Assembly: GCA_964566895.1 (NCBI GenBank)
Contig: CAZMJP010000002.1
Span: 1 to 43,359, forward strand
DNA: 43,359 nucleotides
Direction: 5' to 3'
From: an uncultured Gammaproteobacteria bacterium
GTDB lineage: Bacteria; Patescibacteriota; Patescibacteriia; UBA2591; UBA6264
The notes beneath the pieces were generated by a model, which saw only the letters and a program-made list of their open reading frames with translations, was not told the DNA's origin and ran no database searches. The position numbers were made by a program, and so were the translations under genes. Numbering within the stretch: the stretch's first letter is position 1; every line of letters begins with the position of its first letter. Shown here piece after piece: positions 2,819 to 43,130 of the stretch.

Positions 2819-2972
2819 ATTAATTTTATAAAACCACTTAGTTTATCTAAAAACCGTTTTTCTAAATAAAACGCAGGAGGTTATTCTGTTTAGAATTTGG
2901 GAAACCATAATCTGAAGATTGTTTTGAATCTCGAGTTTCCAAACGAAATCGCATTTGATCTGACTAAAACAA

Positions 2973-7865: not shown

Positions 7866-7935
7866 ATATTTTGTTTACACTCTTATTGATTTGTATTATA
7901 ATATAATTGCCCTAATTTATCAATCATACAATTCT

Positions 7936-11199: not shown

Positions 11200-11227
11200 A
11201 TTATAAATAACTTGATAAATTTGTCAA
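11200..11227 (-). promoter_or_regulatory. Consensus sigma70-type promoter for rplJL
   Basis: Minus strand reads TTGACA (11227-11222), a 16-nt spacer, then TATAAT (11205-11200). Confidence 0.7.
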
Positions 11228-12055: not shown

Positions 12056-12562
12056 TTATCTAGCTACCCAAATTTCAGTTGTATTCTCAGACTCGCAAGC
12101 TCTAACTGTAATAATACCAGTGCTTGAACGTTGAAGGGTATAACCAGTCATACCCGCCGTCCAAGTACCAGCGCCATTCGGACTGATTGCCACATCGCCC
12201 AAATATCCCTCAGTAACCAACCCGGCCAAATTAACACAACTCGTATCGTCCTCAACAGCGGTATCACAACTTGCGTTCTGGTCGTCACAGCCCTCCGCCA
12301 CATCTCCGTTGGTAATCATATAGACATTCCCGGCGTCCATATTGGCAATTGCCGTCAAATAAGAACCGTTATTGTCAATCTGGTCTACTTTAATGGCGTT
12401 CAAGATTTCCGTTATATCAGCCCAGCGGTGTGAATCTCGGGCATCTTTAAATCTGGTTAAGGGGTCAAGAGCGACAAAAACCACCGCTGCCAAAATAGCA
12501 ATCACGGCAATAACGATTAAAAGCTCGATAAGGGTAAAACCTCTGTTTTTTGTTTTCAACAT
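12056..12562 (-). CDS. Type IV pilin, probable major subunit
   Basis: Prepilin leader and methylation motif KNRGFTLIELLIVIAVIAILAAV. The 168-aa protein has Cys pairs in its C-terminal half and is followed by its own terminator. Confidence 0.88.
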   Translation of the reverse strand: MLKTKNRGFTLIELLIVIAVIAILAAVVFVALDPLTRFKDARDSHRWADITEILNAIKVDQIDNNGSYLTAIANMDAGNVYMITNGDVAEGCDDQNASCDTAVEDDTSCVNLAGLVTEGYLGDVAISPNGAGTWTAGMTGYTLQRSSTGIITVRACESENTTEIWVAR

Positions 12563-12584
12563 AATAAATTATATATTTATTTTA

Positions 12585-14699: not shown

Positions 14700-14777
14700 A
14701 ATAAAACATTAGCGCTGAAATATCAGTTAAAAACTAACCCGCCTCTAGCGGAAAGAATAAGATGAAAATATCAAAAT

Positions 14778-16064
14778 TTATTTTTCTTCACCAGTCATTG
14801 GCAGGCTGACATAAAATGTCGACCCTTTATTTTCTTCTGATTCAAACCAAATCTTTCCATTTAAGACTTTCATAATCATCTTGGCAATATAAAGACCAAG
14901 TCCTGCTCCTTCAGTTTCTATTTTTTTAGCATTATCCGCTCGGAAAAATTTTTCAAAAATACTCGGCTTTGCTTTTTCCGGTATGCCAATACCGCTATCT
15001 CTAACGCTAATTAAATATTCTTCATTATTCTTTTGCTCCAATTTAACTAAAATATCGCACTCCCTTTCCGGCGAGTATCGAATGGCGTTAGTCAATAAAT
15101 TATGGAGGACCTGTCGGATTAAATCCGAGTCAATCAAAATTTTAGACAATTTAGTCTCAGGTCTTTGAAAAACTAAACAACATTTTCTAATCCCAGCCAA
15201 AGGACTGACTTCATTAATAACGTTCTGAATAAGATTTTCAAATTGAACCAATTGCAACCTAACCTCCAATTTGCCTGTTTCAAGGCGAGAAACATTAAGA
15301 AAATCGTCAACCAATTGAGTTACCCGTTTAGCCGAATAATAAATATTATCCAGATATTCTCCGTATTTATCACTTAAACTGCCTATTTTCTCATTGCGAA
15401 GCATTTCAGTAAATAAACGAATAGAAGTTATCGGGGTCCGAAGTTGATGAGAGGTAATAGAAATAAACTCATCTTTCATTTCCTCGGCTTTTTTTTGTTT
15501 GACTGACAAAACCCCGCTTAAAAACGCCACCCCAAAAAAAATGAGTATCCGATTCAAAAGAACGGAAAAAGCAATATAAACATTATCCTGCCATTCTAAG
15601 ACCTGGGCCCCAATCTTAGAAATATGGGGAATAAACTCATAGACCTCCAAAAGCGTTAAACCTAGATAAGCAACGCTGGAAAAAATAGCTATCCCCATAC
15701 CGGCATTTAGAGAAAATAATATAGCCAAAGTAGTAATCGGAATAAGATACAGAAAACTAAAAATACTGGAAAATCCTCCCGTATAATAAACAATCAAAGT
15801 GATTAAACAAACTTCGCCGACTGGCCATAACCAAACCGCCAGTTTAAGCAACTTGCCCCTTTTAACAAAACAGCTGAAAAATAAGTTCAGTCCAACCATA
15901 GCTATCAGAGAATAAAAGACTGTTTGCCAGGGGAAAACAATCCCAGTCGGAATATAAAACAATAAGACGATTAAAGAGGAAACTATGGTCAACCAGGATA
16001 CTTTAGCTCGTCGGCCTAAATTTATTATCAAATTATTTTGTTGGATTTTTTGTTTTTCTTGCAT
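14778..16064 (-). CDS. Membrane sensor histidine kinase (PilS-like topology)
   Basis: About six N-terminal transmembrane helices, an H-box (ITSHQLRTPITSI), an N-box (LLTNAIRYS) and G-boxes (DSGIGI, GAGLGLYI). Confidence 0.88.
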   Translation of the reverse strand: MQEKQKIQQNNLIINLGRRAKVSWLTIVSSLIVLLFYIPTGIVFPWQTVFYSLIAMVGLNLFFSCFVKRGKLLKLAVWLWPVGEVCLITLIVYYTGGFSSIFSFLYLIPITTLAILFSLNAGMGIAIFSSVAYLGLTLLEVYEFIPHISKIGAQVLEWQDNVYIAFSVLLNRILIFFGVAFLSGVLSVKQKKAEEMKDEFISITSHQLRTPITSIRLFTEMLRNEKIGSLSDKYGEYLDNIYYSAKRVTQLVDDFLNVSRLETGKLEVRLQLVQFENLIQNVINEVSPLAGIRKCCLVFQRPETKLSKILIDSDLIRQVLHNLLTNAIRYSPERECDILVKLEQKNNEEYLISVRDSGIGIPEKAKPSIFEKFFRADNAKKIETEGAGLGLYIAKMIMKVLNGKIWFESEENKGSTFYVSLPMTGEEK

Positions 16065-16172
16065 TTTTCGCTCAGTAATAATGCGCTTCCTAAATTAGAA
16101 ACACATCATCTTAATCGTTTAATTATCCCAATCCCGGCAAGTATCTCCCCGTTGCCGGGAGAAAGGTCACCC

Positions 16173-16607
16173 TTACTCCTCCTCCCAGTTATCTAAACTA
16201 ATAACATTATCCGTCAAGGTCAAGTCCGCTTGTATCCTCTTATAATACTCGTTGTTTACCGACCCAACAAGATTAATCCTTCTTTGGCCGCCTCCTAAAT
16301 CCGATACTTGTATTATACACGAACTGTTATCAAGTGTTAAGTTTATTTCTCCTTGCCCGACTCCATAATCAGTCTTAAGACGAATCTGACGCAAAACCTC
16401 TTCCAGGCATCCATCAGCTGTTGATAAAGTTTCCATTCCTTTTTGAGAAGTATAACCTAAATCTAACTCGCCCAACCCCAATATTGAGGCGCTATAAGCC
16501 ATAATCAAAACCGCCGCTCCGACAATAATAACAGTCATCAACGCCGCAACAGCGGACTGAGAATTTGTGATTTGTGATTTATGATTTGTAATTTCTTTAA
16601 TTCGCAT
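16173..16607 (-). CDS. PilX-like minor pilin / pilus assembly protein
   Basis: The hydrophobic N-terminal helix SAVAALMTVIIVGAAVLIMAYS is followed by a small globular domain. It sits within the minor-pilin gene set. Confidence 0.5.
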   Translation of the reverse strand: MRIKEITNHKSQITNSQSAVAALMTVIIVGAAVLIMAYSASILGLGELDLGYTSQKGMETLSTADGCLEEVLRQIRLKTDYGVGQGEINLTLDNSSCIIQVSDLGGGQRRINLVGSVNNEYYKRIQADLTLTDNVISLDNWEEE

Positions 16608-16637
16608 CCAAATTTTAAATCTTAATTTTAAATTACG

Positions 16638-17174
16638 TTACTGCCTCAAGCTCACCGCCGTTCGCAAATTATATGAATATCCGTACCCCGCCCCTCCGGA
16701 ATCGTCATTATACCTAACCGTCATCTCAATTCTGATATTCTCTCGGTTAGCCGCTAAAGGAGTAAGATTAGTAAAAACTAAATTAACAACCTTAACTTTA
16801 TTGTTGGTTATAACTACCGGGTCGTCTGTTCCTCGTCTAATCTGCAAAAAACCGTCATCAGAATCTAAATCAATAATCGTTGGATTTTCCTCGCTATTAG
16901 CCATAATCAGAGACAAAACCCCCGGGTCGCTGTCAAAAGTAGAGGATTCGATATTAACGCCGGTCGCGGCCCGTATCTCCCGACTTATCAAATCTAAGGC
17001 GGTCCGGGCATTCGCTTGAACCTCTTGAATAACATAAGCCTTGTTTCGCGTTTTGGAAATAGAGATGCTAAAACCGACAAAAGCAACCACCAGTATGGAA
17101 ATAATAGTAAGATAAACTAATGTTTCAATAAGCGTAAACCCAACTTTTGATTTACTTGATTGAATCTTAACCAT
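16638..17174 (-). CDS. Minor pilin with prepilin-type N-terminal cleavage/methylation domain (PilW-like position)
   Basis: KVGFTLIETLVYLTIISILVVAF motif. Start is taken at the ATG at 17174; the track start at 17180 is a TTG. Confidence 0.8.
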   Translation of the reverse strand: MVKIQSSKSKVGFTLIETLVYLTIISILVVAFVGFSISISKTRNKAYVIQEVQANARTALDLISREIRAATGVNIESSTFDSDPGVLSLIMANSEENPTIIDLDSDDGFLQIRRGTDDPVVITNNKVKVVNLVFTNLTPLAANRENIRIEMTVRYNDDSGGAGYGYSYNLRTAVSLRQ

Positions 17175-17193
17175 TGACAATTGAAAGATTAGA

Positions 17194-20100
17194 TTATTTA
17201 TAATTTATTCTGACTTCCTCCAATATCGGCGTGTCTAAACCGTCGCCAATCAACTCAACTCGATACTGAAGCCATTGATTGTCGTTCAAATCTGAAGAAA
17301 TTAGCGATCCGTCGGCGTTGGTAAAATAAGACCCCGGGCCATCTACTCCAAACCAGTTTGTCCAAGGACTGGGCGACCCCCCTGAGTCGGGAGCAACCCT
17401 TATTTGCAACTTGATTTGACAAGATAAAGAACAAGCAGGTATATTTTCACCCCAATCTATAATTTGGACAGGAGAAATGTCGCCCATATTAAAGGCTGAA
17501 GAAATCAGATAGCCGTTTTGAACAAATAACGCTTCTCTGGTGAAGTGAATTATCGTCCCGTTATTGCCGACCGTCCAACCGTCGATTTCAGAAATCATCC
17601 CTACTGAATTAAGATTTCTGTTTGTCGGAGATGAAAAATCAGCCCAACCCCCGTCAAGCCATCTGTATATTTCTCCGCTGCTGCCCATTGCCCAGCCATC
17701 GTCGGCCGTGATAAAATAAACGCTTCGCCAATTAGTACTCCCGGTATCAATGAATTGAGTCCAGTTAGTCCCATTATAACGATATATTCTCCCGCTGTCG
17801 CCGACTAACCAGCCGTCGCCGGCCTCTAACATAAAAACAGAATTCCAAACCTGACTTCCGGTATCAACAAATTGATTCCAATCAGTTCCGTTATAGTGAT
17901 ATATTTTACCATCATTACCGACTAACCAGCCGTCGCTATCTGAAACCATATCTAATCCTCTCCAGTTCATCTTCCCCGTATCAGCAAATTCTGTCCAATC
18001 AACCCCGTTATAATGATAAATTTTGCCGCTTTCCCCGGCGGCCCAGCCATTGTCAGAAGACAACATATAAATAACATTTATATCTCGCCGTCCCAAATCA
18101 ACAAATTCAGACCAAGCCGAGCCGTTATAATGAAAAAATTTCCCGCTTTCCCCGCCCGCCCAACCGTCATCGGCCGCCGTCATTTCAACGGCATATAAAT
18201 CTTGTTCGCCCAAATCAATAAATTCGCTCCAATCATTACCGTCGTAGTGCAAAATTTCGCCACTATTGCCTACGGCCCAAATATCGGACGAAGAGACAAC
18301 GTCAATTCCGTTTAAATTTTTATCAGTCGGCGTATTGTAAACAATAGTAACATCAGCCAGCTCCGGCGTCTCAAGACCAGAATCCCCTTTTGTTAAAGTC
18401 GCGCGATACTGCAAATACTGACGACTGGGAGAAGAAATATAGGACGATTCCGGGTCGGTCAGCTCGCCGCTGAATGACGACCAACTGCCATCCGGAATCG
18501 GCGTATTGCCTGTTCTGGTAGCGATAGTTAAGTCTGAACCTGCCGGCAAAACTTCCGTCCAGTAAATCATCTCCCAACGGGTATTTATCTCCTCGCTGTT
18601 GAAAATCCGCGAGAAGAACACGCCCGATTCAGGATAAAAATCGCCATATTGGTAAATTCTTCCGTCGTCACCCATTACCCAACCACTATCGACGGAAGAG
18701 AAACAAATTGCCCGCCAGTCCATCCCTCCGTTGTCGACAAATTCACTCCAAGACGTTCCGTTATAGTGATATATTTTCCCGCTTTCGCCGGCGGCCCAAC
18801 CATCATTGGAAGACAACATCTGAACAACGTTTATGTCATTGCTGCCGAGGTCGGCAAACTCAGACCACATCCAGCCGTTATAATGAAAAAATTTCCCGCT
18901 ATCGCCGACGATCCAACCGTCATTGGGGAAGACCATATCAATATCATTCAAATCCTGAGAGCTAATTTCGTCAAGTTCCACCCAAAACGTCCCATTATAT
19001 TGGGCGATATTTCCTTTATCGCCGACGGCCCAGCCGTCATTGGCCGTTATCATAGCCACGGCTCTCCATATTTCTCCTCCAGTATCGGCAAACTGACTCC
19101 AATTAACACCATTATATTTATATATTTTCCCGCTGTCTCCCACAGCCCAGCCATTGTCAGAATAAACCATATCAATACCAAATAAATCATTGCTAAAATT
19201 GTATAATTGGGTCCAATTAAATCCATTGTAACGGTATATTTTGGCGCTTTCGCCCACAGCCCAACCATCGTTGGCTGAAATCATCTCAAGACCGTTTATA
19301 TCGTCGCTGCCCAAATCAGTAAATTCAGTCCAATTGCTTCCATTATAATGGAGTATCTCTCCGCCGCCAGCCGAAGCCCAAATATCATCAGCACTTAAAT
19401 AAGTTATATCGGTTATTTCGTTTGTCGTGGCACTCTGGCTGTCGTTATGCTCTGTCCAAAGGGTATCCTGCTCTAAAAAAACACCGGCGTCTTCTCCTGT
19501 CCCAACGACAACGGTGTTATTAAACTCTTCCCCGGCATTAAAATCAACATCTGTAATGTCTCTAAACTGTTCTCCTCCGGCTAAAATCCAAGAACCATCT
19601 CTGGCTTTAGCTAATCGGATTTCTCCCATCACGCTATAGTCAATATTATTGTCATCAGAATTATATTTGGTTTGATCCGACCAGATGTCCTGTCCTGGAC
19701 CGCCCACCCAATTAGTTTGAATCCACTCTTGCGAGTCCCAATTAGTTAAATAAGTTATCTTCTGAACGGAATTAATTATTCCCGGCCTAACTTCCCAGGT
19801 GACTGTGACAGTCACTTTTTTGCTGTGTAGGTCAGAATAAAGCCCGGGGCAAGCGGTAATCTCGTCTAAAATGTTCCGGCAAACATTTTCAAAAGTAATT
19901 GTTCGGGTATATTGATCTATTTTTTCCGCGGTTCCTTCGCCGGAGAAAATCCACTTTCCCTCATTTATCTCCACTCCGCTCTGATTATAAATAAATTCAT
20001 TCCAACCTCTGCCCCGAATCGACCGAACGGCCTCAACACCTTCCTGAGCCAACGCCTCGGCCTGAGTTTGTTCCCCTCCCTGCCCCAAAGCGTTAAAACC

Positions 20101-20220
20101 TCCTAAAGCCAGAGAAATCATTACAGCGCTAATCAAAGAAAAAATAGCCATAGCAATGACGAGTTCAAGGGTACTCTGGCTATGGCGAGAAAGACTTTTG
20201 AATGAATAAGATATACTCAT
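17194..20220 (-). CDS. Giant pilin-headed protein with two beta-propeller repeat blocks and two beta-sandwich modules; candidate pilus tip adhesin
   Basis: The N-terminus has a pilin-like helix with Glu (QSTLELVIAMAIFSLISAVM). There are 13-14 repeats of about 39 aa with consensus W.EF.D.G....n.v.m.s..DGWAvGdsGkIyhYNG. Two related modules end in QYLQYRATL...TPELADVTIVY and QWLQYRVEL...TPILEEVRINY. Confidence 0.85.
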   Translation of the reverse strand: MSISYSFKSLSRHSQSTLELVIAMAIFSLISAVMISLALGGFNALGQGGEQTQAEALAQEGVEAVRSIRGRGWNEFIYNQSGVEINEGKWIFSGEGTAEKIDQYTRTITFENVCRNILDEITACPGLYSDLHSKKVTVTVTWEVRPGIINSVQKITYLTNWDSQEWIQTNWVGGPGQDIWSDQTKYNSDDNNIDYSVMGEIRLAKARDGSWILAGGEQFRDITDVDFNAGEEFNNTVVVGTGEDAGVFLEQDTLWTEHNDSQSATTNEITDITYLSADDIWASAGGGEILHYNGSNWTEFTDLGSDDINGLEMISANDGWAVGESAKIYRYNGFNWTQLYNFSNDLFGIDMVYSDNGWAVGDSGKIYKYNGVNWSQFADTGGEIWRAVAMITANDGWAVGDKGNIAQYNGTFWVELDEISSQDLNDIDMVFPNDGWIVGDSGKFFHYNGWMWSEFADLGSNDINVVQMLSSNDGWAAGESGKIYHYNGTSWSEFVDNGGMDWRAICFSSVDSGWVMGDDGRIYQYGDFYPESGVFFSRIFNSEEINTRWEMIYWTEVLPAGSDLTIATRTGNTPIPDGSWSSFSGELTDPESSYISSPSRQYLQYRATLTKGDSGLETPELADVTIVYNTPTDKNLNGIDVVSSSDIWAVGNSGEILHYDGNDWSEFIDLGEQDLYAVEMTAADDGWAGGESGKFFHYNGSAWSEFVDLGRRDINVIYMLSSDNGWAAGESGKIYHYNGVDWTEFADTGKMNWRGLDMVSDSDGWLVGNDGKIYHYNGTDWNQFVDTGSQVWNSVFMLEAGDGWLVGDSGRIYRYNGTNWTQFIDTGSTNWRSVYFITADDGWAMGSSGEIYRWLDGGWADFSSPTNRNLNSVGMISEIDGWTVGNNGTIIHFTREALFVQNGYLISSAFNMGDISPVQIIDWGENIPACSLSCQIKLQIRVAPDSGGSPSPWTNWFGVDGPGSYFTNADGSLISSDLNDNQWLQYRVELIGDGLDTPILEEVRINYK
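17542..18315 (-). repeat. Intragenic tandem repeat block 2 (about 7 units of about 117 nt, propeller blades)
   Basis: Covers aa ~636-893. Units end in HYDG, HYNG, HYNG, HYNG, RYNG, RWLDG and IHF, and belong to the same repeat family as block 1. Confidence 0.8.
18646..19419 (-). repeat. Intragenic tandem repeat block 1 (about 7 units of about 117 nt, propeller blades)
   Basis: Covers aa ~268-525 of the 1008-aa protein. Seven successive units end in HYNG, RYNG, KYNG, QYNG, HYNG, HYNG and QYG. Confidence 0.8.
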
Positions 20221-35178: not shown

Positions 35179-36117
35179 TTACGGCTGAAGAATATCCTCG
35201 GTTCGACCGTTGACTGAAATAACAACGTTGTCAACTGTAGAAAGTTGTTTTAAGGTCTCTGTTACTTGAGCTCTGATTGCCGCCACTCGGCAAGAACCAC
35301 CGACTTGAAACTCCAATTGTTCGTCAAAATCAATCTCGGCCGTTCCGCCGCCAGTTGACGGATTAACGGACAACCTCTGGACCCTCACTCCCGAATTTAT
35401 GTTCGAAACAAAACCTTGATTAATTTCTTCCTCTGTCGCTCCTCGCAAAAGAGCTTCTATGGCCGCCCGGGCAACCGCCGAGGTTCTAAAAACTCGTCTC
35501 TCAACGGCTATAGTGCGGGAACAATCAAAATACGGTTCATTGACAAAACGCGAGTCGCTCAAAAAAATCTTTACGGTCATAAACTCCGGCGAAATTTCCG
35601 TCACCTCTTTGAAATAAACCGGGACAACTAATTCGTCCGCCTGCTCCGGCAATCCTGAAGGATTATCTTTTTCTAAAATCAATTTGCCTTCTGAGGTGGA
35701 CGGAACGGCAAAAGGAAGGGCGGCCTTAAATGGCACAAATTTCTCCGTCATCCAATCTTCTAAGGCCTGAGCTGTTGTTATGCCCAAGAGAAAACCATTG
35801 CCGTCAAAAAGTTTAATCGGAAAACTGGCTTCGAAAAACCAGAACCCCCTTGCCTCCCCTTTAATAAAAAGCGGACTTTCAATAATTTGATTAAGTTGAG
35901 GGCTGTCTATCTTTATCAGGTCGGTTTTTCCCGAATTTATTGTTTCTTCTCCGCCGCAGGGTTCAGATGGCATTGGCGCGGAAGGAACTCCATGCTTAAC
36001 CCACTGCCCCTGCCGGCAAATCCAATTGTCTTCCGGACCGCCGATAACAAATCTAATAAAAAACCATCCGGTCAAGACGGCGATTATTATAATAAAAATT
36101 TTTATATTTTTAGTCAT
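35179..36117 (-). CDS. Membrane-anchored protein with Gmad2 Ig-like and GerMN-like domains
   Basis: N-terminal transmembrane helix. The segment PLFIKGEARGFWFFEASFPIKLFDGNG is typical of the Gmad2 domain. The C-terminal segment (VARAAIEALLRG...VDNVVISVNG) resembles GerMN. Confidence 0.55.
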   Translation of the reverse strand: MTKNIKIFIIIIAVLTGWFFIRFVIGGPEDNWICRQGQWVKHGVPSAPMPSEPCGGEETINSGKTDLIKIDSPQLNQIIESPLFIKGEARGFWFFEASFPIKLFDGNGFLLGITTAQALEDWMTEKFVPFKAALPFAVPSTSEGKLILEKDNPSGLPEQADELVVPVYFKEVTEISPEFMTVKIFLSDSRFVNEPYFDCSRTIAVERRVFRTSAVARAAIEALLRGATEEEINQGFVSNINSGVRVQRLSVNPSTGGGTAEIDFDEQLEFQVGGSCRVAAIRAQVTETLKQLSTVDNVVISVNGRTEDILQP

Positions 36118-36287
36118 TGATAAAAGTTCTCCAATTACTCACTCCTCATTTCCTTTAAAAATCTTCTGTAAAATTCTACTCTCTAATTTATTCCATTATA
36201 CAAAAATTCTTTCGGACTAGCAAGAATCCAAAAGAATTGAAACTTAATTGGTCAACAACTAAAACGGTTAACGGGTTATTATTAAAA

Positions 36288-36310
36288 AAGTCCGGCCAAC
36301 GGACTTTTCT
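36288..36310 (-). terminator. Intrinsic terminator of the three-gene operon
   Basis: Minus strand reads AAGTCCG-TTGGC-CGGACTT followed by TTTTAATAAT. It starts about 25 nt after the stop of the KamA-like gene. Confidence 0.7.
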
Positions 36311-36333
36311 ATAAGTAAAACTACTGATAAGCT

Positions 36334-37263
36334 CTAATACATTCGAGTACTTTTATTTTTAAAATCATTAAAGGATGAATAAGTAAATTTCCAAAAATTA
36401 AGGGGAATAGGAATCTTACCCGAACCATTTGGGGCGTCAACCACATGAAAAGGAAAGGCAATACCCGAGATATTTTTTCTAAGTTTGGTCATAATTTCAA
36501 TCTCTTTCTTGATTGGAACAATAAAATGTTCAACCCCTTTAGTCAAGTCGCAGTGAAAAATATAATAAGGTCTAACGCCAAGTTCGACAAGTTTAGTGAA
36601 CAAGGTCTCCAAAACTTTATAAGAATCATTAATTCCTTTTAAAAAAGTCGACTGAGAAAACAAGGGTATCCCGGTTTTTCTCAAAGCATTTACCGCCTTA
36701 ACGGTTTCGGGAGTTAATTCGTCGGGATGTTCAAAATGGATGGAAAAATAAAGCGTTTTCTTTTTATTAATTCTCGTTAAGGTTTCCAAAATCCTTTTAG
36801 TCAAAAGCTGGGGGTCGGATACCGGAACCCGGCTGTGAATTCTAATTATTTTTATCTGTCTTAATTTTGAAAATTTATTTAAAGCATAAATTAAAAGCCT
36901 CGGAACGGTCAAAGGGTCGCCTCCAGAAAAGACAACTTCATTGATTTTCGGTTTGGATTCGATGTAATTTATCATTTTCTCAATATCTCTTAAAGAAAGT
37001 TCTCCTTTTTTAAGATCGGAAACCTCGCGACGTCTGGTGCAAAATCGGCAAAAAGAAGCGCAATTTAAAGTCAACTCAATCAAAACTCTTCGGGAATATT
37101 TATGAACTAACCCTTTGACTTTTTTATGTTTATCTTCCAAAAGGGGGTCGATTAACGCCCGTTTGGAAAAAACCTTTTCCTCTGGAGAAAAATAAAACTG
37201 TTTTTTGATCGCCGATGATTTCTTGGCTAACTGTCTTAAATGACTGCTAATTTTAACCAACAT
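36334..37263 (-). CDS. KamA-family radical SAM aminomutase, short form (lysine 2,3-aminomutase / EpmB-like)
   Basis: CASFCRFC (CxxxCxxC) cluster in the context LTLNCASFCRFCTRRR, with a preceding DPL..E..H...GLVHKYSRRVL segment. VFSGGDPL and VRPYYIFHCD are present. DAPNGSGKIP carries the Lys expected to bind PLP. The 309-aa protein lacks the C-terminal domain of full-length KamA. Confidence 0.82.
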   Translation of the reverse strand: MLVKISSHLRQLAKKSSAIKKQFYFSPEEKVFSKRALIDPLLEDKHKKVKGLVHKYSRRVLIELTLNCASFCRFCTRRREVSDLKKGELSLRDIEKMINYIESKPKINEVVFSGGDPLTVPRLLIYALNKFSKLRQIKIIRIHSRVPVSDPQLLTKRILETLTRINKKKTLYFSIHFEHPDELTPETVKAVNALRKTGIPLFSQSTFLKGINDSYKVLETLFTKLVELGVRPYYIFHCDLTKGVEHFIVPIKKEIEIMTKLRKNISGIAFPFHVVDAPNGSGKIPIPLNFWKFTYSSFNDFKNKSTRMY

Positions 37264-38278
37264 AGATTTTATAACGCCGACAAGCGGCTTTAATTATTTT
37301 ATCTAACATTTCTCTAAAGTTATAACCGGCGGCTCTCGCGACTAAAGGAAAGCGAGAATTTTCTTTCGGGTCGGGGATGATTCCCGGTATTTGGTTTACC
37401 TCTAAAACATTTGGTTTATTTGTCTTGTCTAATCTTAAATCTATCCGACACCAATCTAAAATTCCCAGAACCCTTTTGGTCTTTAAACAAATCTCTTCTA
37501 TTTCTCTCCTTAGAGTTTTTTCAATTTTTGCCGGGCAAATTACGGTCTCTATCTCGCTCTCTGGATTATCAACCAGCCACTTTACTTCATATGAGTCTAT
37601 CGGAACCAAATTTTTAGGCAGTGACGAAAAGTTCAGCTCCGCCGGAGGCAAAATCTCCACCGGACTATTCCCAATTAAACCGACGGTGAATTCTCTTCCT
37701 GATAAAAATTCTTCAACTAACGCCGGTTGATTGAAATTTTTTATCACTTCTTTCACTTTCTTTCTTAATTTTTTTTTGGTCTTTACTAAGGAATCCTGAA
37801 AAATCCCCTTTGACGAACCCTCATTATTCGGTTTAACGAGTAAGGGAAACTTTAGCTCTCCTTTTAATTTTTCCTCGCCGGTTTCGAAAATCTGAAATTT
37901 AGCGGTGGGAATATTATGCCAAGAAAGCGCTTTTTTGGTTAAAGCCTTATTTAAACAAATTGCCTGAGTCAGGGGTTTGGACCCAAGATAAGGAATTTCC
38001 AACATTTCAAGTATCGCCGGAATCTGAGCCTCTCTGTCTCGGCCATGAATTCCTTCGGCAATGTTAAAGACAAGATCAATTTTTGACTTCAATTTTTTAA
38101 ATTTCAAATAAGCGTTTTCATCGGCTTCAATTAAAAAAACCTTGTGACCAAGCTTTCTTAATGATCTAGCAATTCCCCCGATTGTTTTAGGCGTATCAAA
38201 TTCCGCTTCCTCAATGGATTTTCTATTTTTCAAAGACGGTTCTACGTGACGGACGTTAAAAGTCAGGGCGATTTTCAT
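37253..38278 (-). CDS. ATP-grasp ligase of the D-alanine--D-alanine ligase family; substrate unknown
   Basis: Motifs HGRDREAQIPAILEMLEIPYLGS, FPLLVKPNNEGSSKGI, LVEEFLSGREFTVGLIG and CRIDLRLD...VLEVNQIPG. The N-terminus (KIALTFNV...EFDTPKTIGGIARSLRKLGHKV) differs from canonical Ddl. Confidence 0.78.
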   Translation of the reverse strand: MKIALTFNVRHVEPSLKNRKSIEEAEFDTPKTIGGIARSLRKLGHKVFLIEADENAYLKFKKLKSKIDLVFNIAEGIHGRDREAQIPAILEMLEIPYLGSKPLTQAICLNKALTKKALSWHNIPTAKFQIFETGEEKLKGELKFPLLVKPNNEGSSKGIFQDSLVKTKKKLRKKVKEVIKNFNQPALVEEFLSGREFTVGLIGNSPVEILPPAELNFSSLPKNLVPIDSYEVKWLVDNPESEIETVICPAKIEKTLRREIEEICLKTKRVLGILDWCRIDLRLDKTNKPNVLEVNQIPGIIPDPKENSRFPLVARAAGYNFREMLDKIIKAACRRYKIYVG

Positions 38279-38279
38279 C

Positions 38280-39785
38280 TTAGATCTTTAACTCTTCCTT
38301 ATAAATTTTTAAAACTTTGTCTTTTAATTCTTCCGGTATAGTTTCGGCCGAGTGAATGCCAAAATATTTTTTTATTAATTCCTTCTCTCTTTTTTTTGCC
38401 TCTTTTAAATACAATTTCTTGAATAAATCAATTAATTCGCCTTTATATCCATTTTGGTAAGCTAAGTAAAAAGCTAATAATTGTTCATCCCTCCCTAAAA
38501 GAGAAACATCGTAACCATAGTTACTATCCTTGTCGCAACCGAAGAGGGCGTATTTTTGTCTATACTTCAGTTTCAACATATTGTTCCTTAATTCTACTTT
38601 TTTGGGATTGATATTGTTCGCTAAAAGAAAAATAAAAATTCTCGCGCATTTTGAGCAATTTCCGCACCAACGACTCTTCCTTTTTATTATTTTATATTCA
38701 TTAAAAGAAGAACAAGACATCTGATATTTGGCAATTTCAGGATAGCGATGGTGTAAAATTTTAATAATGGCAAGTTCGTGAAGCGGCTCAATTAAAGAAC
38801 CGACTTTAAGATTTTCCATCCCCAAAAGTTGAACGATTTTTCCTAATTTCTGAATCCACTCCACGCTTTGTTCATAGACGGGATTACACCAAAAACCTTC
38901 CTTATCCAAAAATTTATCATTGCAAGACTGTTCATTGGAGAAGAAAAGATAGTTAGTCATTCTTGCAAAAGCAATCGGCAGAACGATTAACCCAAATTGG
39001 GTTAGTTGCATCTCCCAACCATACCAGCCATCGTCAGACGGATTTTTATACGGCTCGCGCAAGCTGCCGGCCTCATTTTTAATAAATAAAATTTTTTGTT
39101 TGAATTCTTCAAAAAATTTTTCCGCTAATTTTTCCTTGAGATGATCCTCGGTTTGAGAAAGAGGCTCCTTTACATACGCCGGCATTGTTTTAATTCCGAT
39201 TTCTTTGCATAAACTATAAGTAAGCAAACTGTCTTTCCCAAAAGTAAAAAATATAAGAGCGGTATTCCTAATCTTTCTTAATGGTAGGGTAAAAGGAACG
39301 GAAGCTTCTTTCCTATTAAAATGATATTTAGTTTGAGATAATTTTTCTAAATACTTTGAAGCCTTCTCGGACTTCATTAGGGCGGTGGCGGGCAAAGAAT
39401 CCCTGAATCCCTCTCCAATCATATCTTTGACTGAAGGTTTTGACATAAGATACCACAAAGAACCAATATCCAAGAGACAAGGCAGGTGCAAGGTTAAAGC
39501 AAAAGTCAAATTCTCTAAAAGAACTTTCTTTAAAAACAAGGGATACTTCCCCCAAATATTTCTGGGATAGACGACGGAAAAATCTTTTTGATTGAAACTA
39601 ATAAGAAATCCTTTCTCTTTAATTTCCGGCTTGATTAAAATCTTTTTCGAAATAAAAAAAGAGTCGCCCTCTTCTTTTTTAGACTCTTTAATTGAAATCT
39701 CCAAAGGTCCGCTCCTACTTGGAGGTTCGTCTTCTTCTTTAGTTATGGTAATAGATGAAGTTTTTGTTTTTTCAAGAGTTTGCAT
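38280..39785 (-). CDS. Uncharacterised 501-aa protein with a PP-loop-like motif and a C-terminal Cys cluster (possible adenine-nucleotide alpha-hydrolase-fold adenylating enzyme)
   Basis: ALIFFTFGKDSLLTY resembles the SGGxDS PP-loop, and RWCGNCSKCARIF resembles the CxxC...C zinc motif of QueC-type PP-loop enzymes. Its stop codon lies 1 nt from the start of the ATP-grasp gene. Confidence 0.6.
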   Translation of the reverse strand: MQTLEKTKTSSITITKEEDEPPSRSGPLEISIKESKKEEGDSFFISKKILIKPEIKEKGFLISFNQKDFSVVYPRNIWGKYPLFLKKVLLENLTFALTLHLPCLLDIGSLWYLMSKPSVKDMIGEGFRDSLPATALMKSEKASKYLEKLSQTKYHFNRKEASVPFTLPLRKIRNTALIFFTFGKDSLLTYSLCKEIGIKTMPAYVKEPLSQTEDHLKEKLAEKFFEEFKQKILFIKNEAGSLREPYKNPSDDGWYGWEMQLTQFGLIVLPIAFARMTNYLFFSNEQSCNDKFLDKEGFWCNPVYEQSVEWIQKLGKIVQLLGMENLKVGSLIEPLHELAIIKILHHRYPEIAKYQMSCSSFNEYKIIKRKSRWCGNCSKCARIFIFLLANNINPKKVELRNNMLKLKYRQKYALFGCDKDSNYGYDVSLLGRDEQLLAFYLAYQNGYKGELIDLFKKLYLKEAKKREKELIKKYFGIHSAETIPEELKDKVLKIYKEELKI

Positions 39786-39811
39786 TGGAAATAATTATCA
39801 TTACTAGGGTC

Positions 39812-39839
39812 ATTATATATTCATTGAAATGATTGTCAA
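39812..39839 (-). promoter_or_regulatory. Consensus sigma70-type promoter of the three-gene operon
   Basis: Minus strand reads TTGACA (39839-39834), a 16-nt spacer, then TATAAT (39817-39812). It lies about 27 nt upstream of the ATG at 39785. Confidence 0.7.
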
Positions 39840-39871
39840 CTGTGGATAACTTTAAAAACTCAATTTTTGTC

Positions 39872-40684
39872 TCACCTCTGACATTTTGGACAAAAACAAG
39901 TAGTCCGGCCGGAAAGTTTGATTGCTTTTATTTTTGCTCCGCAACGAAAACATTCTTGACCTTCTCTCCCATAAACTTTCAAACGGGTAATAAAGTTTCC
40001 CTCTCTCCCATCAACATCTCGATAAGCGTCTACTGATGTTCCTCCGCTCTTAATAGCCGCGTTCATTATTTTTCTTAAGCCATCATAAACATCCTTGACT
40101 TCCCCGTTTTCCAAAGTTCCAACTTTTCTTTCCGGATTGACCTTGGCGTAAAAGCAAGTCTCCTGAGCATAAATGTTCCCGATACCGGCTAAAAATTTCT
40201 GGTCCATCAGCAACGGTTTAATTTTGGCCTTTTTCTTTTTTAACAATAACTCTTTGAATTTCTCCGGGGTAAAATCTTTGGAAAGCGGCTCCGGCCCAAA
40301 CTCTTTATTTAAAATTTTATCTGTTTGGGAAGTACTCAATAATTTCATGTAACCAAACTTCCTTAAATCTTTATAAAGCAATTTTTTACTGCCCTCAAAT
40401 TCAAAAATAACACTGGTATGTTTGTCCGGCTTTTGGTCCATAATCAAAAGACCGGTCAATTTTAAATGAACTAATAATGAATCGCCGCTGGATAAATCAA
40501 TAACTAAAAGTTTTGCTCTTCTTCGAAGAGATTTGATTTTTACTCCTTTCGTTTTAGAAATGAATTTAGGGACAGAAACATTAATCAGGCGAGGATTGAG
40601 CACCTCCACCCCTCTAATAGTTTCTCCTTTAATTCGCTTTTCAAGTTGAAGTTTAATTGTTTCCACTTCAGGTAATTCAGGCAT
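39872..40684 (-). CDS. mutM: Formamidopyrimidine-DNA glycosylase
   Basis: MPELPEVETI catalytic N-terminus, H2TH region and a C-terminal zinc finger (CFRCGAKI...CFCPKCQ). The gene ends at a TGA stop. Confidence 0.92.
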   Translation of the reverse strand: MPELPEVETIKLQLEKRIKGETIRGVEVLNPRLINVSVPKFISKTKGVKIKSLRRRAKLLVIDLSSGDSLLVHLKLTGLLIMDQKPDKHTSVIFEFEGSKKLLYKDLRKFGYMKLLSTSQTDKILNKEFGPEPLSKDFTPEKFKELLLKKKKAKIKPLLMDQKFLAGIGNIYAQETCFYAKVNPERKVGTLENGEVKDVYDGLRKIMNAAIKSGGTSVDAYRDVDGREGNFITRLKVYGREGQECFRCGAKIKAIKLSGRTTCFCPKCQR

Positions 40685-40752: not shown

Positions 40753-41007
40753 TTAGATTTGAAACAGATGCCCATAAATTCTTATTCCAAATTTCCCTTC
40801 CGGCGTCAGCAGCACGCTGGTCGCCATGGGAACATTTTTCCCTCTATTACCATGGCAAAGAGCCTCCATCTCGGGACAACAGATATTTTTCACTATCACC
40901 CCATCCTCCCGGGGGATAATAGTAAAATCTGGATGATTCTCCAGCCATCTCTTGGCTGGCTGTCCCTCAATCCTTCTCTTTGCCGCCGACCTTAAGCGAT
41001 ATTTCAT
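40753..41007 (-). CDS. Small basic Cys/His-containing protein, unknown function (84 aa)
   Basis: The ATG at 41007 is preceded by GGAGGT at a 3-nt spacing and by a consensus promoter. The sequence is MKYRLRSAAKRRIEG...NICCPEMEALCHGN.... The track's longer form starts upstream of that promoter. Confidence 0.55.
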   Translation of the reverse strand: MKYRLRSAAKRRIEGQPAKRWLENHPDFTIIPREDGVIVKNICCPEMEALCHGNRGKNVPMATSVLLTPEGKFGIRIYGHLFQI

Positions 41008-41035
41008 TTTACCTCCATAAATTAAAGTTGCCCTT

Positions 41036-41064
41036 ATTATAAATAAATTTATAAATCTTGTCAA
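41036..41064 (-). promoter_or_regulatory. Consensus sigma70-type promoter of the 84-aa gene
   Basis: Minus strand reads TTGACA (41064-41059), a 17-nt spacer, then TATAAT (41041-41036). Confidence 0.7.
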
Positions 41065-41132
41065 GGATAATTGTTTCAGACTCAACTCATTAACTCACTT
41101 CGGAAAAGGAATATCAGACCCCCGGAGGCCCC

Positions 41133-41585: not shown

Positions 41586-42419
41586 TTACTTCCCTTTGAG
41601 TTTCCTTTTTTCTATTTTCTCCAGATGTTTTATCTCTTTTTTAATTTCTCTGATGTGCTTTTCTGAAGGCAACTGTTCTGGGGGAACACCACCAATCTCT
41701 TTAATCGTTTGCCTTATTTTACCACCAACCATAAAATGAATTTTGGATGCCGCCCCCTCTCCTTGTATTTTACCATTTTTTATCTTTTCATCAGTCTGTG
41801 TAATGCGAAACAAATTTGCGGCTAACTCCGTAGAACCCGCCCTATCCAACAACTCACCCCTTTTAATACCCTTCTTTTGTTCTACTTCAGATAAAGGAGC
41901 ACCATAAAGCCCTTGATAACCAGCATCATTAAATAGTCCAAAATTAGAGACCCCCGCCTCTTTCGCTGTTTTGAAAAGTTTTTTATTATGGTCAGAAACT
42001 TGACCGCGAATAAATAGCCTTTTAGCTGTATCTGGGAGTTGCTCAAATACTTCTTGTCGCCTTGTTTGAATGGCAAAATAAGTTTGTGCTAATGCTATCT
42101 CGGGTTTACTGGGGTCTCCATTTTGAGCTATCAAATAACAAGCGTATCTATCCAGCTTAAAATCCCCCACTTTTCGCACCGTATTTGAGCCAATTTTGAC
42201 CAATTTGCTGATTTTAGCAAAATGGTTATCCACATCCTGCCCGCTTTCCATACACGCCCGTGCGGCTCTTCCTATAACCTCCTCAAAGTTACGCCATTGG
42301 GAATAGCCAAGCAAAAGCATAAGCCCACGAGCCATCCAATACTCAACGCCATTTTCGTCAATCTTTTTTATGCTCTCAAAATCTCTATGTGGAGCGTTTG
42401 GTATTAGTTCGTTTGTCAT
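41586..42419 (-). CDS. dinD: DNA-damage-inducible protein D family
   Basis: Collinear similarity to E. coli DinD as recalled from memory: KIGSN..., RYACYLIAQNGDPSKPEIALAQTYFAIQTRRQE, GYQGLYG and GSTELAANLFRITQTDEK. Confidence 0.85.
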   Translation of the reverse strand: MTNELIPNAPHRDFESIKKIDENGVEYWMARGLMLLLGYSQWRNFEEVIGRAARACMESGQDVDNHFAKISKLVKIGSNTVRKVGDFKLDRYACYLIAQNGDPSKPEIALAQTYFAIQTRRQEVFEQLPDTAKRLFIRGQVSDHNKKLFKTAKEAGVSNFGLFNDAGYQGLYGAPLSEVEQKKGIKRGELLDRAGSTELAANLFRITQTDEKIKNGKIQGEGAASKIHFMVGGKIRQTIKEIGGVPPEQLPSEKHIREIKKEIKHLEKIEKRKLKGK

Positions 42420-42683: not shown

Positions 42684-43130
42684 TCAGGTACCCTTTTTAA
42701 GTCGTTGGAAGGATTTTTGAATTTCTTTACCAATTAAAGGTATTATATCACTTATAACAAATGAAACTTCTTTTTTTCGATCTGTATCTATCTTTAAATA
42801 AATTTTTAAATCTGTCCTTAAAAAATTTTTAAATTGACGATTATCGTAATAACAACCGGATAAACGATGGATAATATAATTACAGAAATCGTTAAGGGAT
42901 TTCTTTCCACTTATTGTTGGAAGCGATATATTATCAATCATTTTATACTTCAAACAAATTCTTAGTAAAATACAAAGAATTTGAAGTTTTACATATAAAG
43001 AATAAAGTTTATTATGGTCTCCTTTATTAGTCCAATTTTGTAACCATTTAGTTTTAGAAAAAAGTTTGCCAAAATCATTTTTAATATCTTTAAATTCTTT
43101 TTTGATTCTGGAACGCAAATATTTTTCCAT
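42684..43130 (-). CDS. Hypothetical protein (148 aa), AT-rich orphan
   Basis: Intact ORF with an ATG start. It is Lys/Ile/Asn-rich, and I recognise no motif. It is visibly more AT-rich than the flanking housekeeping genes. Confidence 0.4.
   Translation of the reverse strand: MEKYLRSRIKKEFKDIKNDFGKLFSKTKWLQNWTNKGDHNKLYSLYVKLQILCILLRICLKYKMIDNISLPTISGKKSLNDFCNYIIHRLSGCYYDNRQFKNFLRTDLKIYLKIDTDRKKEVSFVISDIIPLIGKEIQKSFQRLKKGT

Follow-up and report, generated by a model that had tools for sequence, protein, structure and literature searches.

A three-gene operon that may build a small beta-lysine-containing amide or peptide

We found that three minus-strand genes, here called A, B and C, form a self-contained operon in the window (the whole 43,359-nt stretch of DNA that was analysed, from a small bacterium of the candidate phyla radiation), a conclusion supported by a perfect sigma-70 promoter at one end and a strong hairpin terminator at the other. 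Tentatively, and with slightly less than even confidence, we propose a short ATP-driven pathway, encoded by the operon, which would build a small amide or peptide containing beta-lysine. The pathway chemistry is predicted throughout from homology. The features are as follows.

38280..39785, minus strand: gene A, 501 aa, MurL/QueC-like PP-loop (predicted adenylating) enzyme of an unnamed family, assigned by homology and a structural model
39228..39245, minus strand: degenerate PP-loop T181-F-G-K-D-S186 of A, aligning with SGGKES of MurL-like proteins
38646..38666, minus strand: C374-x2-C377-x2-C380 of A, aligning with CAKCPKC of MurL-like proteins
37253..38278, minus strand: gene B, 341 aa, ATP-grasp ligase with a complete Ddl fold, from a distinct clade (Pfam and model)
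36334..37263, minus strand: gene C, 309 aa, minimal KamA-family radical-SAM/PLP aminomutase, predicted lysine 2,3-aminomutase (TIGR00238)
37039..37062, minus strand: radical-SAM cluster motif C68-x3-C72-x2-C75 of C, equivalent to C125/C129/C132 of 2A5H
36415..36417, minus strand: K283 of C, PLP-binding lysine in a GSGK context, equivalent to K337 of lysine 2,3-aminomutase (LAM)
39812..39839, minus strand: sigma-70-type promoter, TTGACA (39839-39834)-N16-TATAAT (39817-39812), 12/12 match
36283..36311, minus strand: intrinsic terminator, 12-bp hairpin with a 5-nt loop, 3' arm running into a U run, found by folding

The open reading frames described in the earlier note were confirmed by their coordinates, with a 1-nt gap between A and B (38279) and an 11-nt overlap of B with C (37253-37263). 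The promoter lies 27 nt upstream of the A start codon, within the 86-nt gap after fpg. Three perfect TTGACA/TATAAT sites occur in the window compared with 0.01 in dinucleotide shuffles, indicating that these sites are real promoters. The terminator hairpin begins 23 nt beyond the C stop codon, and the fold of 36275-36335 (-16.1 kcal/mol, z = -3.5) was matched in stability by 0 of 200 shuffles; it is absent from the consensus scan list and was seen by folding. No Rfam element was detected in 35900-40200. The G+C content of the operon is 34-38%, similar to its flanks. Its neighbours in the window encode FtsW/RodA, Gmad2+Germane, DUF3048 and ribosomal protein L25 proteins, and those named by the earlier note (rodA, Gmad2/GerMN and DUF3048) are as it described them.

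Gene C belongs to the KamA family, as first proposed: it scored 214.7 bits against TIGR00238, over the cutoff of 199.2, and matched Clostridium LAM (2A5H) at 1.6e-61. On the 2A5H alignment, the cluster motif and the PLP lysine are both present. R77, which follows the cluster, corresponds to LAM R134, the lysine-specifying aspartates are D239 (LAM D293) and D276 (LAM D330), and an SGGD motif is also found. Among about 87 related aminomutases, the equivalents of the cluster, R134, D293, D330 and K337 are kept with a single exception, L028, which is missing the cluster cysteines, and the PLP lysine is invariant across the whole set. Because the CxxxCxxC motif, the PLP lysine and both aspartates are kept, C most likely makes beta-lysine. 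C thus carries these hallmarks of the lysine 2,3-aminomutase family (Clostridium KamA, AblA and E. coli EpmB), but it is truncated at both ends, where Clostridium LAM has about 57 further N-terminal residues and a C-terminal zinc domain, and zinc ligand C268 is replaced by Ser. It also falls under the equivalog cutoffs for AblA, AblA_like_2, EpmB (191.8 against 369.3) and the glutamate and arginine aminomutases. Unlike AblA and EpmB, its partner is an ATP-grasp rather than AblB (a GNAT) or EpmA. C is the sole KamA-type gene that we saw in the candidate-phyla lineages, where identity is 57-77%.

Membership of B in the Ddl family was borne out by its match to Dala_Dala_lig_C (2.4e-33) and by its fold. 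In the model (pLDDT 90.4), Ddl structures superpose over 334-341 columns with TM scores of 0.75-0.83, and the N-domain that had been called non-canonical is that of a normal Ddl in structure; only its sequence is divergent. B shares with E. coli DdlB (2DLN) and Ddl-like ligases such as Aslfm the three-domain fold and the ATP/Mg residues, retaining K215, R255, D257, E270, N272 and S281 (DdlB numbering). Most Ddl catalytic residues are likewise retained (the E15-region acid, S150/S151, K215, R255 and S281), so a D-Ala-type substrate may be considered. Set against these likenesses are the substrate-site changes H63 to E75, Y210 to D228, Y216 to W234 and L282 to R309, of which at least H63, Y216 and L282 are replaced clade-wide. 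B also misses every Ddl model cutoff (173 bits with the subfamily model, cutoff 243). On these scores and residue changes, B is not a standard Ddl.

Gene A matched zero Pfam families, including PF06508, MurL_N and MurL_epimerase_C, and it begins with a disordered, variable stretch of 45 aa. Its match to the NCBIfam MurL model was 8e-14, at 51 bits where the cutoff is 700. With hhalign, it aligned with candidate-phyla MurL-like proteins over 295 columns (probability 70.6%, E 3.9e-5), an alignment that takes in the PP-loop, the cysteine cluster and the helical domain at the C-terminus. The AlphaFold model of A (pLDDT 83.5) gave QatC, Cap9, QueC, ThiI and TtuA as its best Foldseek matches, QatC at E 1.2e-6 over 453 columns. 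Alignments and model together indicate that A is distantly paralogous to MurL and has a QueC-like PP-loop fold, and they support its prediction as a MurL-type PP-loop carboxylate activator, in line with the earlier proposal. The motifs noted before are present and conserved among homologues. The PP-loop, which comes after strand 173-179 in the model, lies within F-[TS]-F-G-K-D-S-L-L-T, invariant across 20 homologues; since this loop is degenerate, ATP use by A is not certain. C358, C374, C377 and C380 are also invariant and are probably a QueC-type structural zinc site. A radical-SAM cluster is the less likely reading of these cysteines, given the QueC-like fold and the invariant C358.

We then compared gene neighbourhoods in relatives. 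The exact triad was found at 6 of 7 loci, only in a Nealsonbacteria-like subclade, and the closest relatives also have a true MurL-family gene (PF26299+PF26298) positioned between A and B. Co-conservation of the three genes holds within the close clade and is not general: other candidate-phyla C loci carry C alone in 10 of 12 cases and an ATP-grasp nearby in 2, and an ATP-grasp accompanies 7 of 18 more distant A loci, none of those 7 with C nearby. B is often found downstream of dnaJ at candidate-phyla loci without C or A. Of the 25 non-redundant A loci whose flanks extend for 3 kb or more, 13 have an ATP-grasp within 3 kb and nine have A alone; the ATP-grasps beside A represent six different clades and occur in at least six gene orders or architectures. 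The association of aminomutase and ligase is wider. In 22 non-redundant loci from outside the candidate phyla (Planctomycetota, Lindowbacteria, Ignavibacteriales and Spirochaetia), a Ddl-like ATP-grasp lies at most 3 kb from the aminomutase in 16, and two ATP-grasps are present in 10. The same adjacency recurs in candidate phyla (L011, L024, L026/27, L091 and L160), and one locus (L172) encodes a single 708-aa protein, Radical_SAM + LAM_C + Dala_Dala_lig_C, a natural aminomutase::ATP-grasp fusion. Additional partners include GNAT genes (L011, L086 and L172), an ATP-grasp::GNAT fusion (L043), three tandem ATP-grasps (L174), a Peptidase_S58 (DmpA/BapA family) gene after ATP-grasp-ATP-grasp-C (L026/L027) and a class-I GATase near the module in L160 only.

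The fusion and the cross-phylum adjacency link B to C and give real support to the suggestion that the operon first makes a beta-amino acid and then ligates it. In the proposed pathway, C would convert L-lysine to beta-lysine by a radical-SAM/PLP lysine 2,3-aminomutase mechanism, as its catalytic and specificity residues predict. B would then form an acyl-phosphate and join beta-lysine to another amino acid or carboxylate, the choice of the activated partner being a prediction. The acidic E75 and D228 that B has gained, together with R309 at the Leu282 position, suggest that its first substrate is cationic and that the second bears an additional carboxylate. Finally, homology and the A/ATP-grasp adjacency suggest that A would adenylate the remaining terminal carboxylate of the product of B. 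The outcome could be C-terminal epimerisation, as in MurL chemistry, or amidation or further ligation, as in QueC, Cap9 and AsnO chemistry. MurL has been proposed to adenylate the C-terminal carboxylate of a peptide (PMC8788868), and Cap9 forms an amide to a protein N-terminus (bioRxiv 10.1101/2025.04.06.647259). Relatives supply extra components, in some cases one or two further ATP-grasps and in others a GNAT, a true MurL-family gene or an S58 peptidase, so the module resembles a variable small-peptide assembly line, and the GNAT, peptidase and tandem ATP-grasps count toward a peptide pathway. Against this, C is mostly alone in the sampled candidate-phyla genomes and B is often without C or A. 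A stands alone in Bathyarchaeia and many Microgenomates, so its substrate need not come from B or C, and a soluble secondary metabolite would be odd to conserve strongly in ~1 Mb genomes.

A role in peptidoglycan precursor synthesis is unlikely, yet it is the strongest of the alternatives. B would make a non-standard dipeptide or add a stem or cross-bridge residue, possibly placing beta-lysine on Lys3 in the way that the D-Asp ligase Aslfm attaches its residue, and MurL-like A would act on UDP-MurNAc-peptide by adenylating and epimerising (or amidating) its C-terminal residue. Points that would fit are the full Ddl fold of B and its retention of most Ddl catalytic residues, the relationship of A by sequence to the peptidoglycan epimerase MurL alone, the MurL-family gene of the Nealsonbacteria loci and the precedent of a ligase plus an epimerase in MurD2/MurL (PMC8788868). 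The window operon also adjoins rodA and GerM/Gmad2 genes; however, the earlier argument from such envelope neighbours was not reproduced in relatives, which differ in their flanking genes, and across ~130 locus groups the module is not repeatedly accompanied by any mur, ddl-partner or penicillin-binding-protein gene. Moreover, homologues of A with 54-58% identity occur among archaeal neighbours in Bathyarchaeia, which are murein-free, planctomycete modules of an aminomutase and two ATP-grasps contain no MurL-like gene, and a free peptide is a better fit for the GNAT and S58-peptidase partners. Somewhat less probable again is an operon of convenience, in which unrelated housekeeping genes are co-transcribed, with C supplying EpmA with beta-lysine, B acting as a D-Ala-D-Ala ligase and A independent. 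Close gene packing is normal in such genomes, C and B each stand alone at many candidate-phyla loci, as A does at nine of its well-flanked loci, and NCBI names certain B homologues D-alanine--D-alanine ligase. The C::B fusion, the adjacency in unrelated phyla, the six ATP-grasp clades beside A in differing orders and the missed Ddl cutoffs with clade-wide changes in B all argue against coincidence.

We give the lowest probability, a rather slim one, to modification of a translation factor, in which C would be a functional EpmB supplying beta-lysine for EF-P Lys34, and B and/or A would either take the place of EpmA or build further on the modification of EF-P or of some other protein. The earlier note had dismissed EF-P since efp and epmA are absent nearby, which is a weak argument: L091 carries EF-P (PGKG loop) and EpmA 3 kb from A|B2-B-C, this EpmA clearing both equivalog cutoffs (331.8 > 286.9 and 281.2 > 264), and in L094 a same-strand efp precedes A-MurL-B-C by 120 nt. 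The conservation of C as the only KamA-type gene in its lineages is what a housekeeping role would predict, and Cap9 and QatC, to which A is related in fold, act by modifying proteins (bioRxiv 10.1101/2025.04.06.647259; PMC13279940). Nevertheless, efp was found within 8 kb at only 2 of ~45 C-bearing candidate-phyla loci, which is not significant against a chance expectation of ~0.7, and neither efp nor epmA was found near 35 module groups outside the candidate phyla. The other EpmA matches near A were rejected as full-length LysRS in lineage-specific synteny. C is far under the EpmB cutoff, an ATP-grasp replacement would be redundant where EpmA exists (L091), and we know of no Ddl-fold enzyme that acts on proteins.

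The predicted beta-lysine peptide pathway has partial counterparts among known systems. The alternative D-Glu route MurD2/MurL (Xanthomonas; PMC8788868) likewise uses a ligase and then an ATP-dependent carboxylate enzyme of the family with which A aligns and of which a true member lies inside the Nealsonbacteria cluster. The module ligase is a Ddl-fold ATP-grasp rather than a Mur ligase, however, and A differs from MurL in its low score, N-domain and TFGKDS loop, and in occurring in archaea without murein. QueC-family proteins, including Cap9 and QatC, share with A a PP-loop domain and a four-Cys site; they adenylate a carboxylate that an amine then attacks (bioRxiv 10.1101/2025.04.06.647259; PMC13279940). 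A has no PF06508 or PADLOC match, its context is housekeeping or biosynthetic rather than defence, and no deazaguanine, TGT, QatA, QatB or QatD gene was found near the module. In the NAGGN osmolyte pathway, Ngg combines a GNAT and an ATP-grasp, and AsnO is an adenylating amidotransferase (PMC8070244). The logic is similar, with an ATP-grasp dipeptide, an adenylating enzyme on the terminal carboxylate and a GNAT amine cap, and the GNAT genes and ATP-grasp::GNAT fusion of relatives recall Ngg. The window operon differs in having no GNAT, A has no glutaminase domain, and the families differ from Ngg and AsnO. N-epsilon-acetyl-beta-lysine synthesis by AblA/AblB would share the beta-lysine building block predicted here.

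Collectively, the interpretation in the earlier note is partly supported. If the peptidoglycan alternative were true, the organism would have a racemase-independent or beta-lysine-containing wall. The best reading, by analogy with NAGGN or MurD2/MurL chemistry, is that a small beta-lysine peptide is assembled in successive ATP-dependent steps; the module, for which we found no published description in the literature, would combine known enzyme types.

The three genes are arranged in the window as follows. Gene A encodes a MurL/QueC-like PP-loop protein, gene B a Ddl-like ATP-grasp and gene C a KamA-family aminomutase.

38280-39785, minus strand: gene A, ORF of 501 aa
37253-38278, minus strand: gene B, ORF of 341 aa
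36334-37263, minus strand: gene C, ORF of 309 aa
39839-39812, minus strand: promoter TTGACA-N16-TATAAT, a perfect match, within the 86 nt that separate fpg from gene A and 27 nt upstream of the gene A start codon
36311-36283, minus strand: terminator, a 12-bp hairpin with a U tract, found by folding (-16.1 kcal/mol, z = -3.5)
11200-11227 and 41036-41064, minus strand: further perfect TTGACA-N16/17-TATAAT promoters, by consensus match

Together the ORFs occupy 36334-39785, with a gap of 1 nt between A and B and an overlap of 11 nt between B and C. The earlier note had described a three-gene operon between a perfect promoter and a clean terminator, and we reproduced its ORFs, gap, overlap and signals. 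Perfect TTGACA-N16/17-TATAAT sites occurred three times in the window versus 0.01 times in shuffled sequences, indicating that they are functional signals in this organism. An Rfam search in and around the operon returned no element; with a 5′ UTR of only ~20 nt and no Rfam match, a riboswitch or leader RNA 5′ of gene A was rejected. A horizontal-transfer island was rejected as well, since the G+C content of the operon equals that of its flanks. A 10/12 promoter-like site that overlaps a terminator-like hairpin (36195-36238, minus strand) lies in the interval from the operon terminator to the GerM/Gmad2 gene, and the latter is probably transcribed from a promoter of its own.

The window, which carries a type IV pilus block and genes for ArgRS, GAPDH, EF-Ts, S2, a release factor, L25, RodA and Fpg, looks like part of a Patescibacteria (candidate phyla radiation) genome. 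The closest homologues of A, B and C were found in Candidatus Nealsonbacteria and other Patescibacteria. Genomes of candidate-phyla bacteria measure ~1 Mb and encode very little biosynthesis. Two large ORFs of 724 aa (7795-9969, plus strand) and 1008 aa (17194-20220, minus strand) had no Pfam match; the second lies inside the pilus block, together with a PilM-like protein with an SH3 domain, a PilS-like kinase, T2SSF, T2SSE and a pilin. Just beyond fpg is a gene for a Bro-N domain protein (41586-42419, minus strand), a domain typical of phages and mobile elements, with small unannotated ORFs nearby (40753-41085 and 42684-43130).

Gene C passed the KamA-family model TIGR00238 (214.7 bits, curated cutoff 199.2) and matched the Clostridium lysine 2,3-aminomutase (LAM) structure 2A5H with E 1.6e-61. 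Its C68, C72, C75 and K283 align with C125, C129, C132 and the PLP lysine K337 of 2A5H, which confirms the CxxxCxxC cluster and PLP lysine read earlier from the sequence. Of ~87 related aminomutases, all conserve these residues except L028, from which the cluster cysteines are absent. Gene C scored below the equivalog cutoffs of AblA (TIGR03820, 262 against 525.4 bits), EpmB (TIGR03821, 191.8 against 369.3 bits) and the Glu and Arg aminomutases, and below the cutoff of AblA_like_2 (253.8 against 396.25 bits). In LAM, Asp293 and Asp330 bind the epsilon-ammonium group and Arg134 binds the carboxylate; in glutamate 2,3-aminomutase, D293 and D330 are replaced. The corresponding D239, D276 and R77 of C are kept in all ~87 related sequences. 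The N-terminal ~57 residues and the C-terminal zinc domain of LAM are missing from C, and zinc ligand C268 is changed to Ser. These alignments predict a minimal enzyme with lysine as its substrate. C may also have a second role as a beta-lysine source for EpmA, the ligase of EF-P beta-lysylation.

Gene B passed Pfam Dala_Dala_lig_C (2.4e-33, 115.8 bits, cutoff 24) and its structural model (pLDDT 90.4) superposes over its full length on Ddl structures (TM 0.75-0.83), so its placement among Ddl-family ATP-grasps holds. The same superposition indicates that the N-domain is a normal Ddl domain of divergent sequence, and not the non-canonical one proposed before. None of the NCBIfam Ddl models was passed (best 173.2 bits, below the 243 of NF002378). 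Using E. coli DdlB as the reference, with its sequence checked against 1IOV, we found that the B clade keeps S150/S151, K215, R255, D257, E270, N272 and S281 and changes H63 to E75, Y210 to D228, Y216 to W234 and L282 to R309. The DdlB D-Ala-site set (E15, H63, S150, K215, Y216, R255, S281, L282) is incomplete in B, and the equivalent of E15 is ambiguous by one alignment position. An N-terminal signature, FN-AEG...RE...PA-LE-L-IPY-GS with EEAEFD, is common to B and the Kuenenia enzyme, unlike true Ddl. B is frequently the last gene of an hrcA-grpE-dnaK-dnaJ block. Automatic annotation often calls it D-Ala-D-Ala ligase and gives C the name lysine 2,3-aminomutase or EpmB-like; both are routinely named after enzymes whose membership tests they fail.

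Gene A had no Pfam match at E <= 0.1, including to PF06508, MurL_N and MurL_epimerase_C, and nothing at E <= 1 in a PDB sequence search. Its only library match was NCBIfam MurL (NF041275; 8e-14, aa 153-389), whose score of 51 bits is below the cutoff of 700. When a profile of 20 A homologues was compared with MurL-family proteins of related loci, hhalign gave a probability of 70.6% and E 3.9e-5 over 295 columns, placing TFGKDS on the SGGKES PP-loop and CGNCSKC on CAKCPKC. This sequence comparison suggests remote homology only between A and MurL. The AlphaFold model (pLDDT 83.5, pTM 0.84) has a PP-loop Rossmann-like fold and a Cys4 site, in which C358, C374, C377 and C380 are invariant. Its best Foldseek matches were QatC (E 1.2e-6, 453 columns), Cap9, QueC, ThiI and TtuA, with probability 1.0 to QatC, Cap9 and QueC. 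All five are PP-loop enzymes that adenylate a substrate. The canonical SGGxDS of QueC and PP-loop ATP pyrophosphatases is replaced by TFGKDS in A. The A family is well conserved, with F-[TS]-F-G-K-D-S-L-L-T, NEQSC and RWCxxCSKCxR among its invariant features, and comprises 165 cluster representatives at E <= 1e-30. The earlier reading of A as a PP-loop-like protein stands for the fold. An anti-phage defence role (QatABCD or type IV CBASS), prompted by the QatC/Cap9 fold, was rejected, since PADLOC gave no match for A, B or C and no partners were present in the window. Cap9, by QueC chemistry, links the carboxylate of a deazaguanine to the N-terminus of a protein (bioRxiv 10.1101/2025.04.06.647259; PMC13279940). 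Gene A defines a family that no Pfam model covers. It broadens the adenylating MurL/QueC scaffold, which in the members known so far serves to epimerise a precursor of peptidoglycan or to attach a base to proteins.

To follow the genes across genomes, we collected 80 genome loci at C homologues, 80 metagenome loci at A homologues and individual contexts (+/-10 kb per match; numbered L001-L174), mapped A, B, C, MurL, EF-P and EpmA on all of them and removed redundant loci before counting. A-B-C was present in six of seven close-relative A loci (>=50% identity, good flanks), and the Nealsonbacteria lineage has the order A-MurL-B-C, with a true MurL-family gene inserted. At more distant A loci with good flanks, an ATP-grasp lay within 3 kb in 3/5 and 4/13 and a convergent paralogue of A (A') in 1/5 and 3/13, the latter being more widespread among all A loci; eight of these 18 had neither partner. 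In candidate-phyla loci, C stood alone in 10 of 12. Co-conservation of the triad therefore holds for the close relatives but not for distant A loci or most candidate-phyla C loci.

Two pairings proved robust. In 22 non-redundant loci from Planctomycetota (Gemmataceae, Kuenenia), Lindowbacteria, Ignavibacteriales and Spirochaetia, a Ddl-like ATP-grasp directly followed the aminomutase in 16 and two were present in 10, and no other neighbour was conserved. In L172 the two are fused in a 708-aa ORF with Radical_SAM (96-243), LAM_C (286-362) and Dala_Dala_lig_C (473-678) domains. The second pairing joins A to an ATP-grasp, found within 3 kb in 13 of 25 A loci with flanks, from six different ATP-grasp clades and in six or more gene orders (A>B; A>B2; A>AG<AG'; A><AG<A'; C>B>A; and A beside GNAT-AG-AG-(C::B), where B2, AG and AG' are further ATP-grasps and C::B is the fused gene). 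Together, these pairings indicate that the ATP-grasp is the hub joining C and A. All-against-all ORF clustering of the 174 loci revealed no further neighbour common to different lineages; only lineage-specific synteny was detected (a spermidine-synthase-like methyltransferase, SecA, an HD protein and SpoIID).

Several single contexts were also recorded. The fused gene (L172:11926-14052, minus strand) clusters with two further ATP-grasps, a GNAT and an A homologue, and the four PEP-utiliser mobile domain proteins that flank this cluster make the locus (also L172:3990-7903 and 14385-17401) resemble a biosynthetic gene cluster. Lone A homologues of 54-58% identity occur in L098, L102, L106-L108 and L001, the last a Bathyarchaeia contig (8001-9368; GCA_038884135.1) where A sits among archaeal genes (URO-D methyltransferases, HEPN/nucleotidyltransferase); the Bathyarchaeia case implies that A has moved between candidate-phyla bacteria and archaea and has a function independent of B and C. 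In Microgenomates/Gottesmanbacteria, A lies tail-to-tail with A', which has 33-41% identity and no Pfam family (L003:9433-10809, minus strand; L114, L115, L120, L122, L123, L128, L134, L137). In 14 locus groups, inside secA...lysS-greA synteny, the gene upstream of A is divergent and encodes a 212-aa spermidine-synthase-like methyltransferase. In Kuenenia-type loci a canonical QueC (SGGLDS; L073:13290-13979, minus strand) comes right after aminomutase-AG1-AG2 and is followed by MurB. This neighbour is notable given the QueC-like fold of A; conserved in one lineage only (nine loci), it is probably synteny. On a Portnoybacteria-like contig, the DNA polymerase III alpha gene is split by an intein with a LAGLIDADG endonuclease (L008:12520-14930).

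Accessory genes were found in some relatives. GNAT acetyltransferases are inside the module in four lineages, as separate genes in L011, L086 and L172 and as an ATP-grasp::GNAT fusion in L043. A Peptidase_S58 gene (1.5e-112) is directly 3′ of ATP-grasp-ATP-grasp-C in L027 (10990-12216, plus strand) and L026 (3007-4215, plus strand); the DmpA/BapA family to which it belongs includes beta-aminopeptidases. A class-I glutamine amidotransferase adjoins C-B-A in L160, and L174 (4830-8188, plus strand) has three tandem Ddl-like ATP-grasps (353, 332 and 395 aa) but neither an aminomutase nor A within 7 kb. These genes would suit a free small peptide that is built stepwise, N-acetylated, C-terminally modified and hydrolysed. 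The L043 fusion (12241-13791, plus strand; Gemmataceae, 516 aa), a second ATP-grasp with a C-terminal GNAT, resembles Ngg of the NAGGN pathway.

As a tentative reading, with somewhat less than an even chance of being right, we propose that C, B and A act in this order to assemble a beta-lysine product. C would form beta-lysine, and B would couple it to a second amino acid or carboxylate via an acyl-phosphate. A would then adenylate the terminal carboxylate that is still free, leading either to epimerisation, the MurL reaction, or to amidation or ligation, as in QueC, Cap9 and AsnO. Operon structure, family assignments, residue conservation and genetic couplings were observed here; all substrates and products, the order of steps and the action of A on the product of B are what we infer. 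Previous work revealed that Ngg (GNAT plus ATP-grasp) synthesises N-acetylglutaminylglutamine, whose terminus is then amidated by AsnO (PMC8070244), and that MurD2 and MurL are a ligase-then-epimerase pair (PMC8788868). The window operon shares an ATP-grasp and an adenylating-type enzyme with the former, whereas GNAT and glutaminase are absent from the window, GNAT being found solely in the relatives L011, L043, L086 and L172. With the latter it would share the logic of a ligase followed by a carboxylate enzyme.

The same genes could instead belong to a peptidoglycan-precursor pathway. The Ddl fold of B, the MurL kinship of A, the MurL gene within the Nealsonbacteria cluster and the rodA neighbour are consistent with this, but mur genes are not recurrent neighbours, A occurs in archaea without murein, and the GNAT and S58 partners suit a free peptide better; we consider it unlikely. 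Chance grouping of unrelated genes in an operon of convenience is a poorer candidate, given the C::B fusion in L172 and the repeated, rearranged adjacencies.

Modification of EF-P appears least probable of all. In L091, a PGKG-type EF-P and an EpmA scoring above both of its equivalog cutoffs lie 3 kb from A beside B2-B-C, and in L094 efp is 120 nt upstream of A. However, efp adjacency in two of ~45 loci (L091, L094) is not above chance, and other ‘EpmA’ matches were LysRS: the EpmA-like tblastn matches near A in L118, L122, L127, L131, L133 and L150 were rejected as full-length LysRS (495-881 aa) in lineage-specific secA...lysS-greA synteny. Neither EpmA nor EF-P is encoded in the 43-kb window. 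In the L094 EF-P (2405-2968, plus strand), encoded upstream of A-MurL-B-C, the loop around the modified lysine is atypical, with QQIGKAQD instead of the usual PGKG.

A bolder form of the C-B-A proposal, which we regard as a long shot, places the module in the envelope or translation-factor chemistry of ultra-small bacteria: a beta-lysine peptide would be built by ATP-grasps and MurL paralogues (A, A', MurL) and epimerised after ligation, giving D- or beta-residues for the wall, or an EF-P side chain, without racemases or EpmA. If true, the MurL/QueC scaffold would have a new enzymatic function, and the module would represent a new way of modifying peptidoglycan or a protein.

Each component comes from a known superfamily and the proposed chemistry has precedents. 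In the literature searched, we found no paper describing a KamA-type aminomutase with a Ddl-like ATP-grasp and beta-lysine, or EpmA and EpmB with an ATP-grasp, nor one on CPR/Patescibacteria peptidoglycan with alanine racemase or D-alanine. Many candidate-phyla lineages retain C and B at 52-80% identity, and such conservation in ~1 Mb genomes suggests that the product is likely important to these organisms. The aminomutase and ATP-grasp core across Planctomycetota and other phyla, once fused, points to a widespread uncharacterised beta-lysine conjugate. The module is conserved, cross-phylum and testable, in organisms with minimal genomes, its chemistry so far within known types. Its product could be a new solute, wall component or protein modification, and its identity would give a function to three large gene families now ‘hypothetical’ or mis-named.
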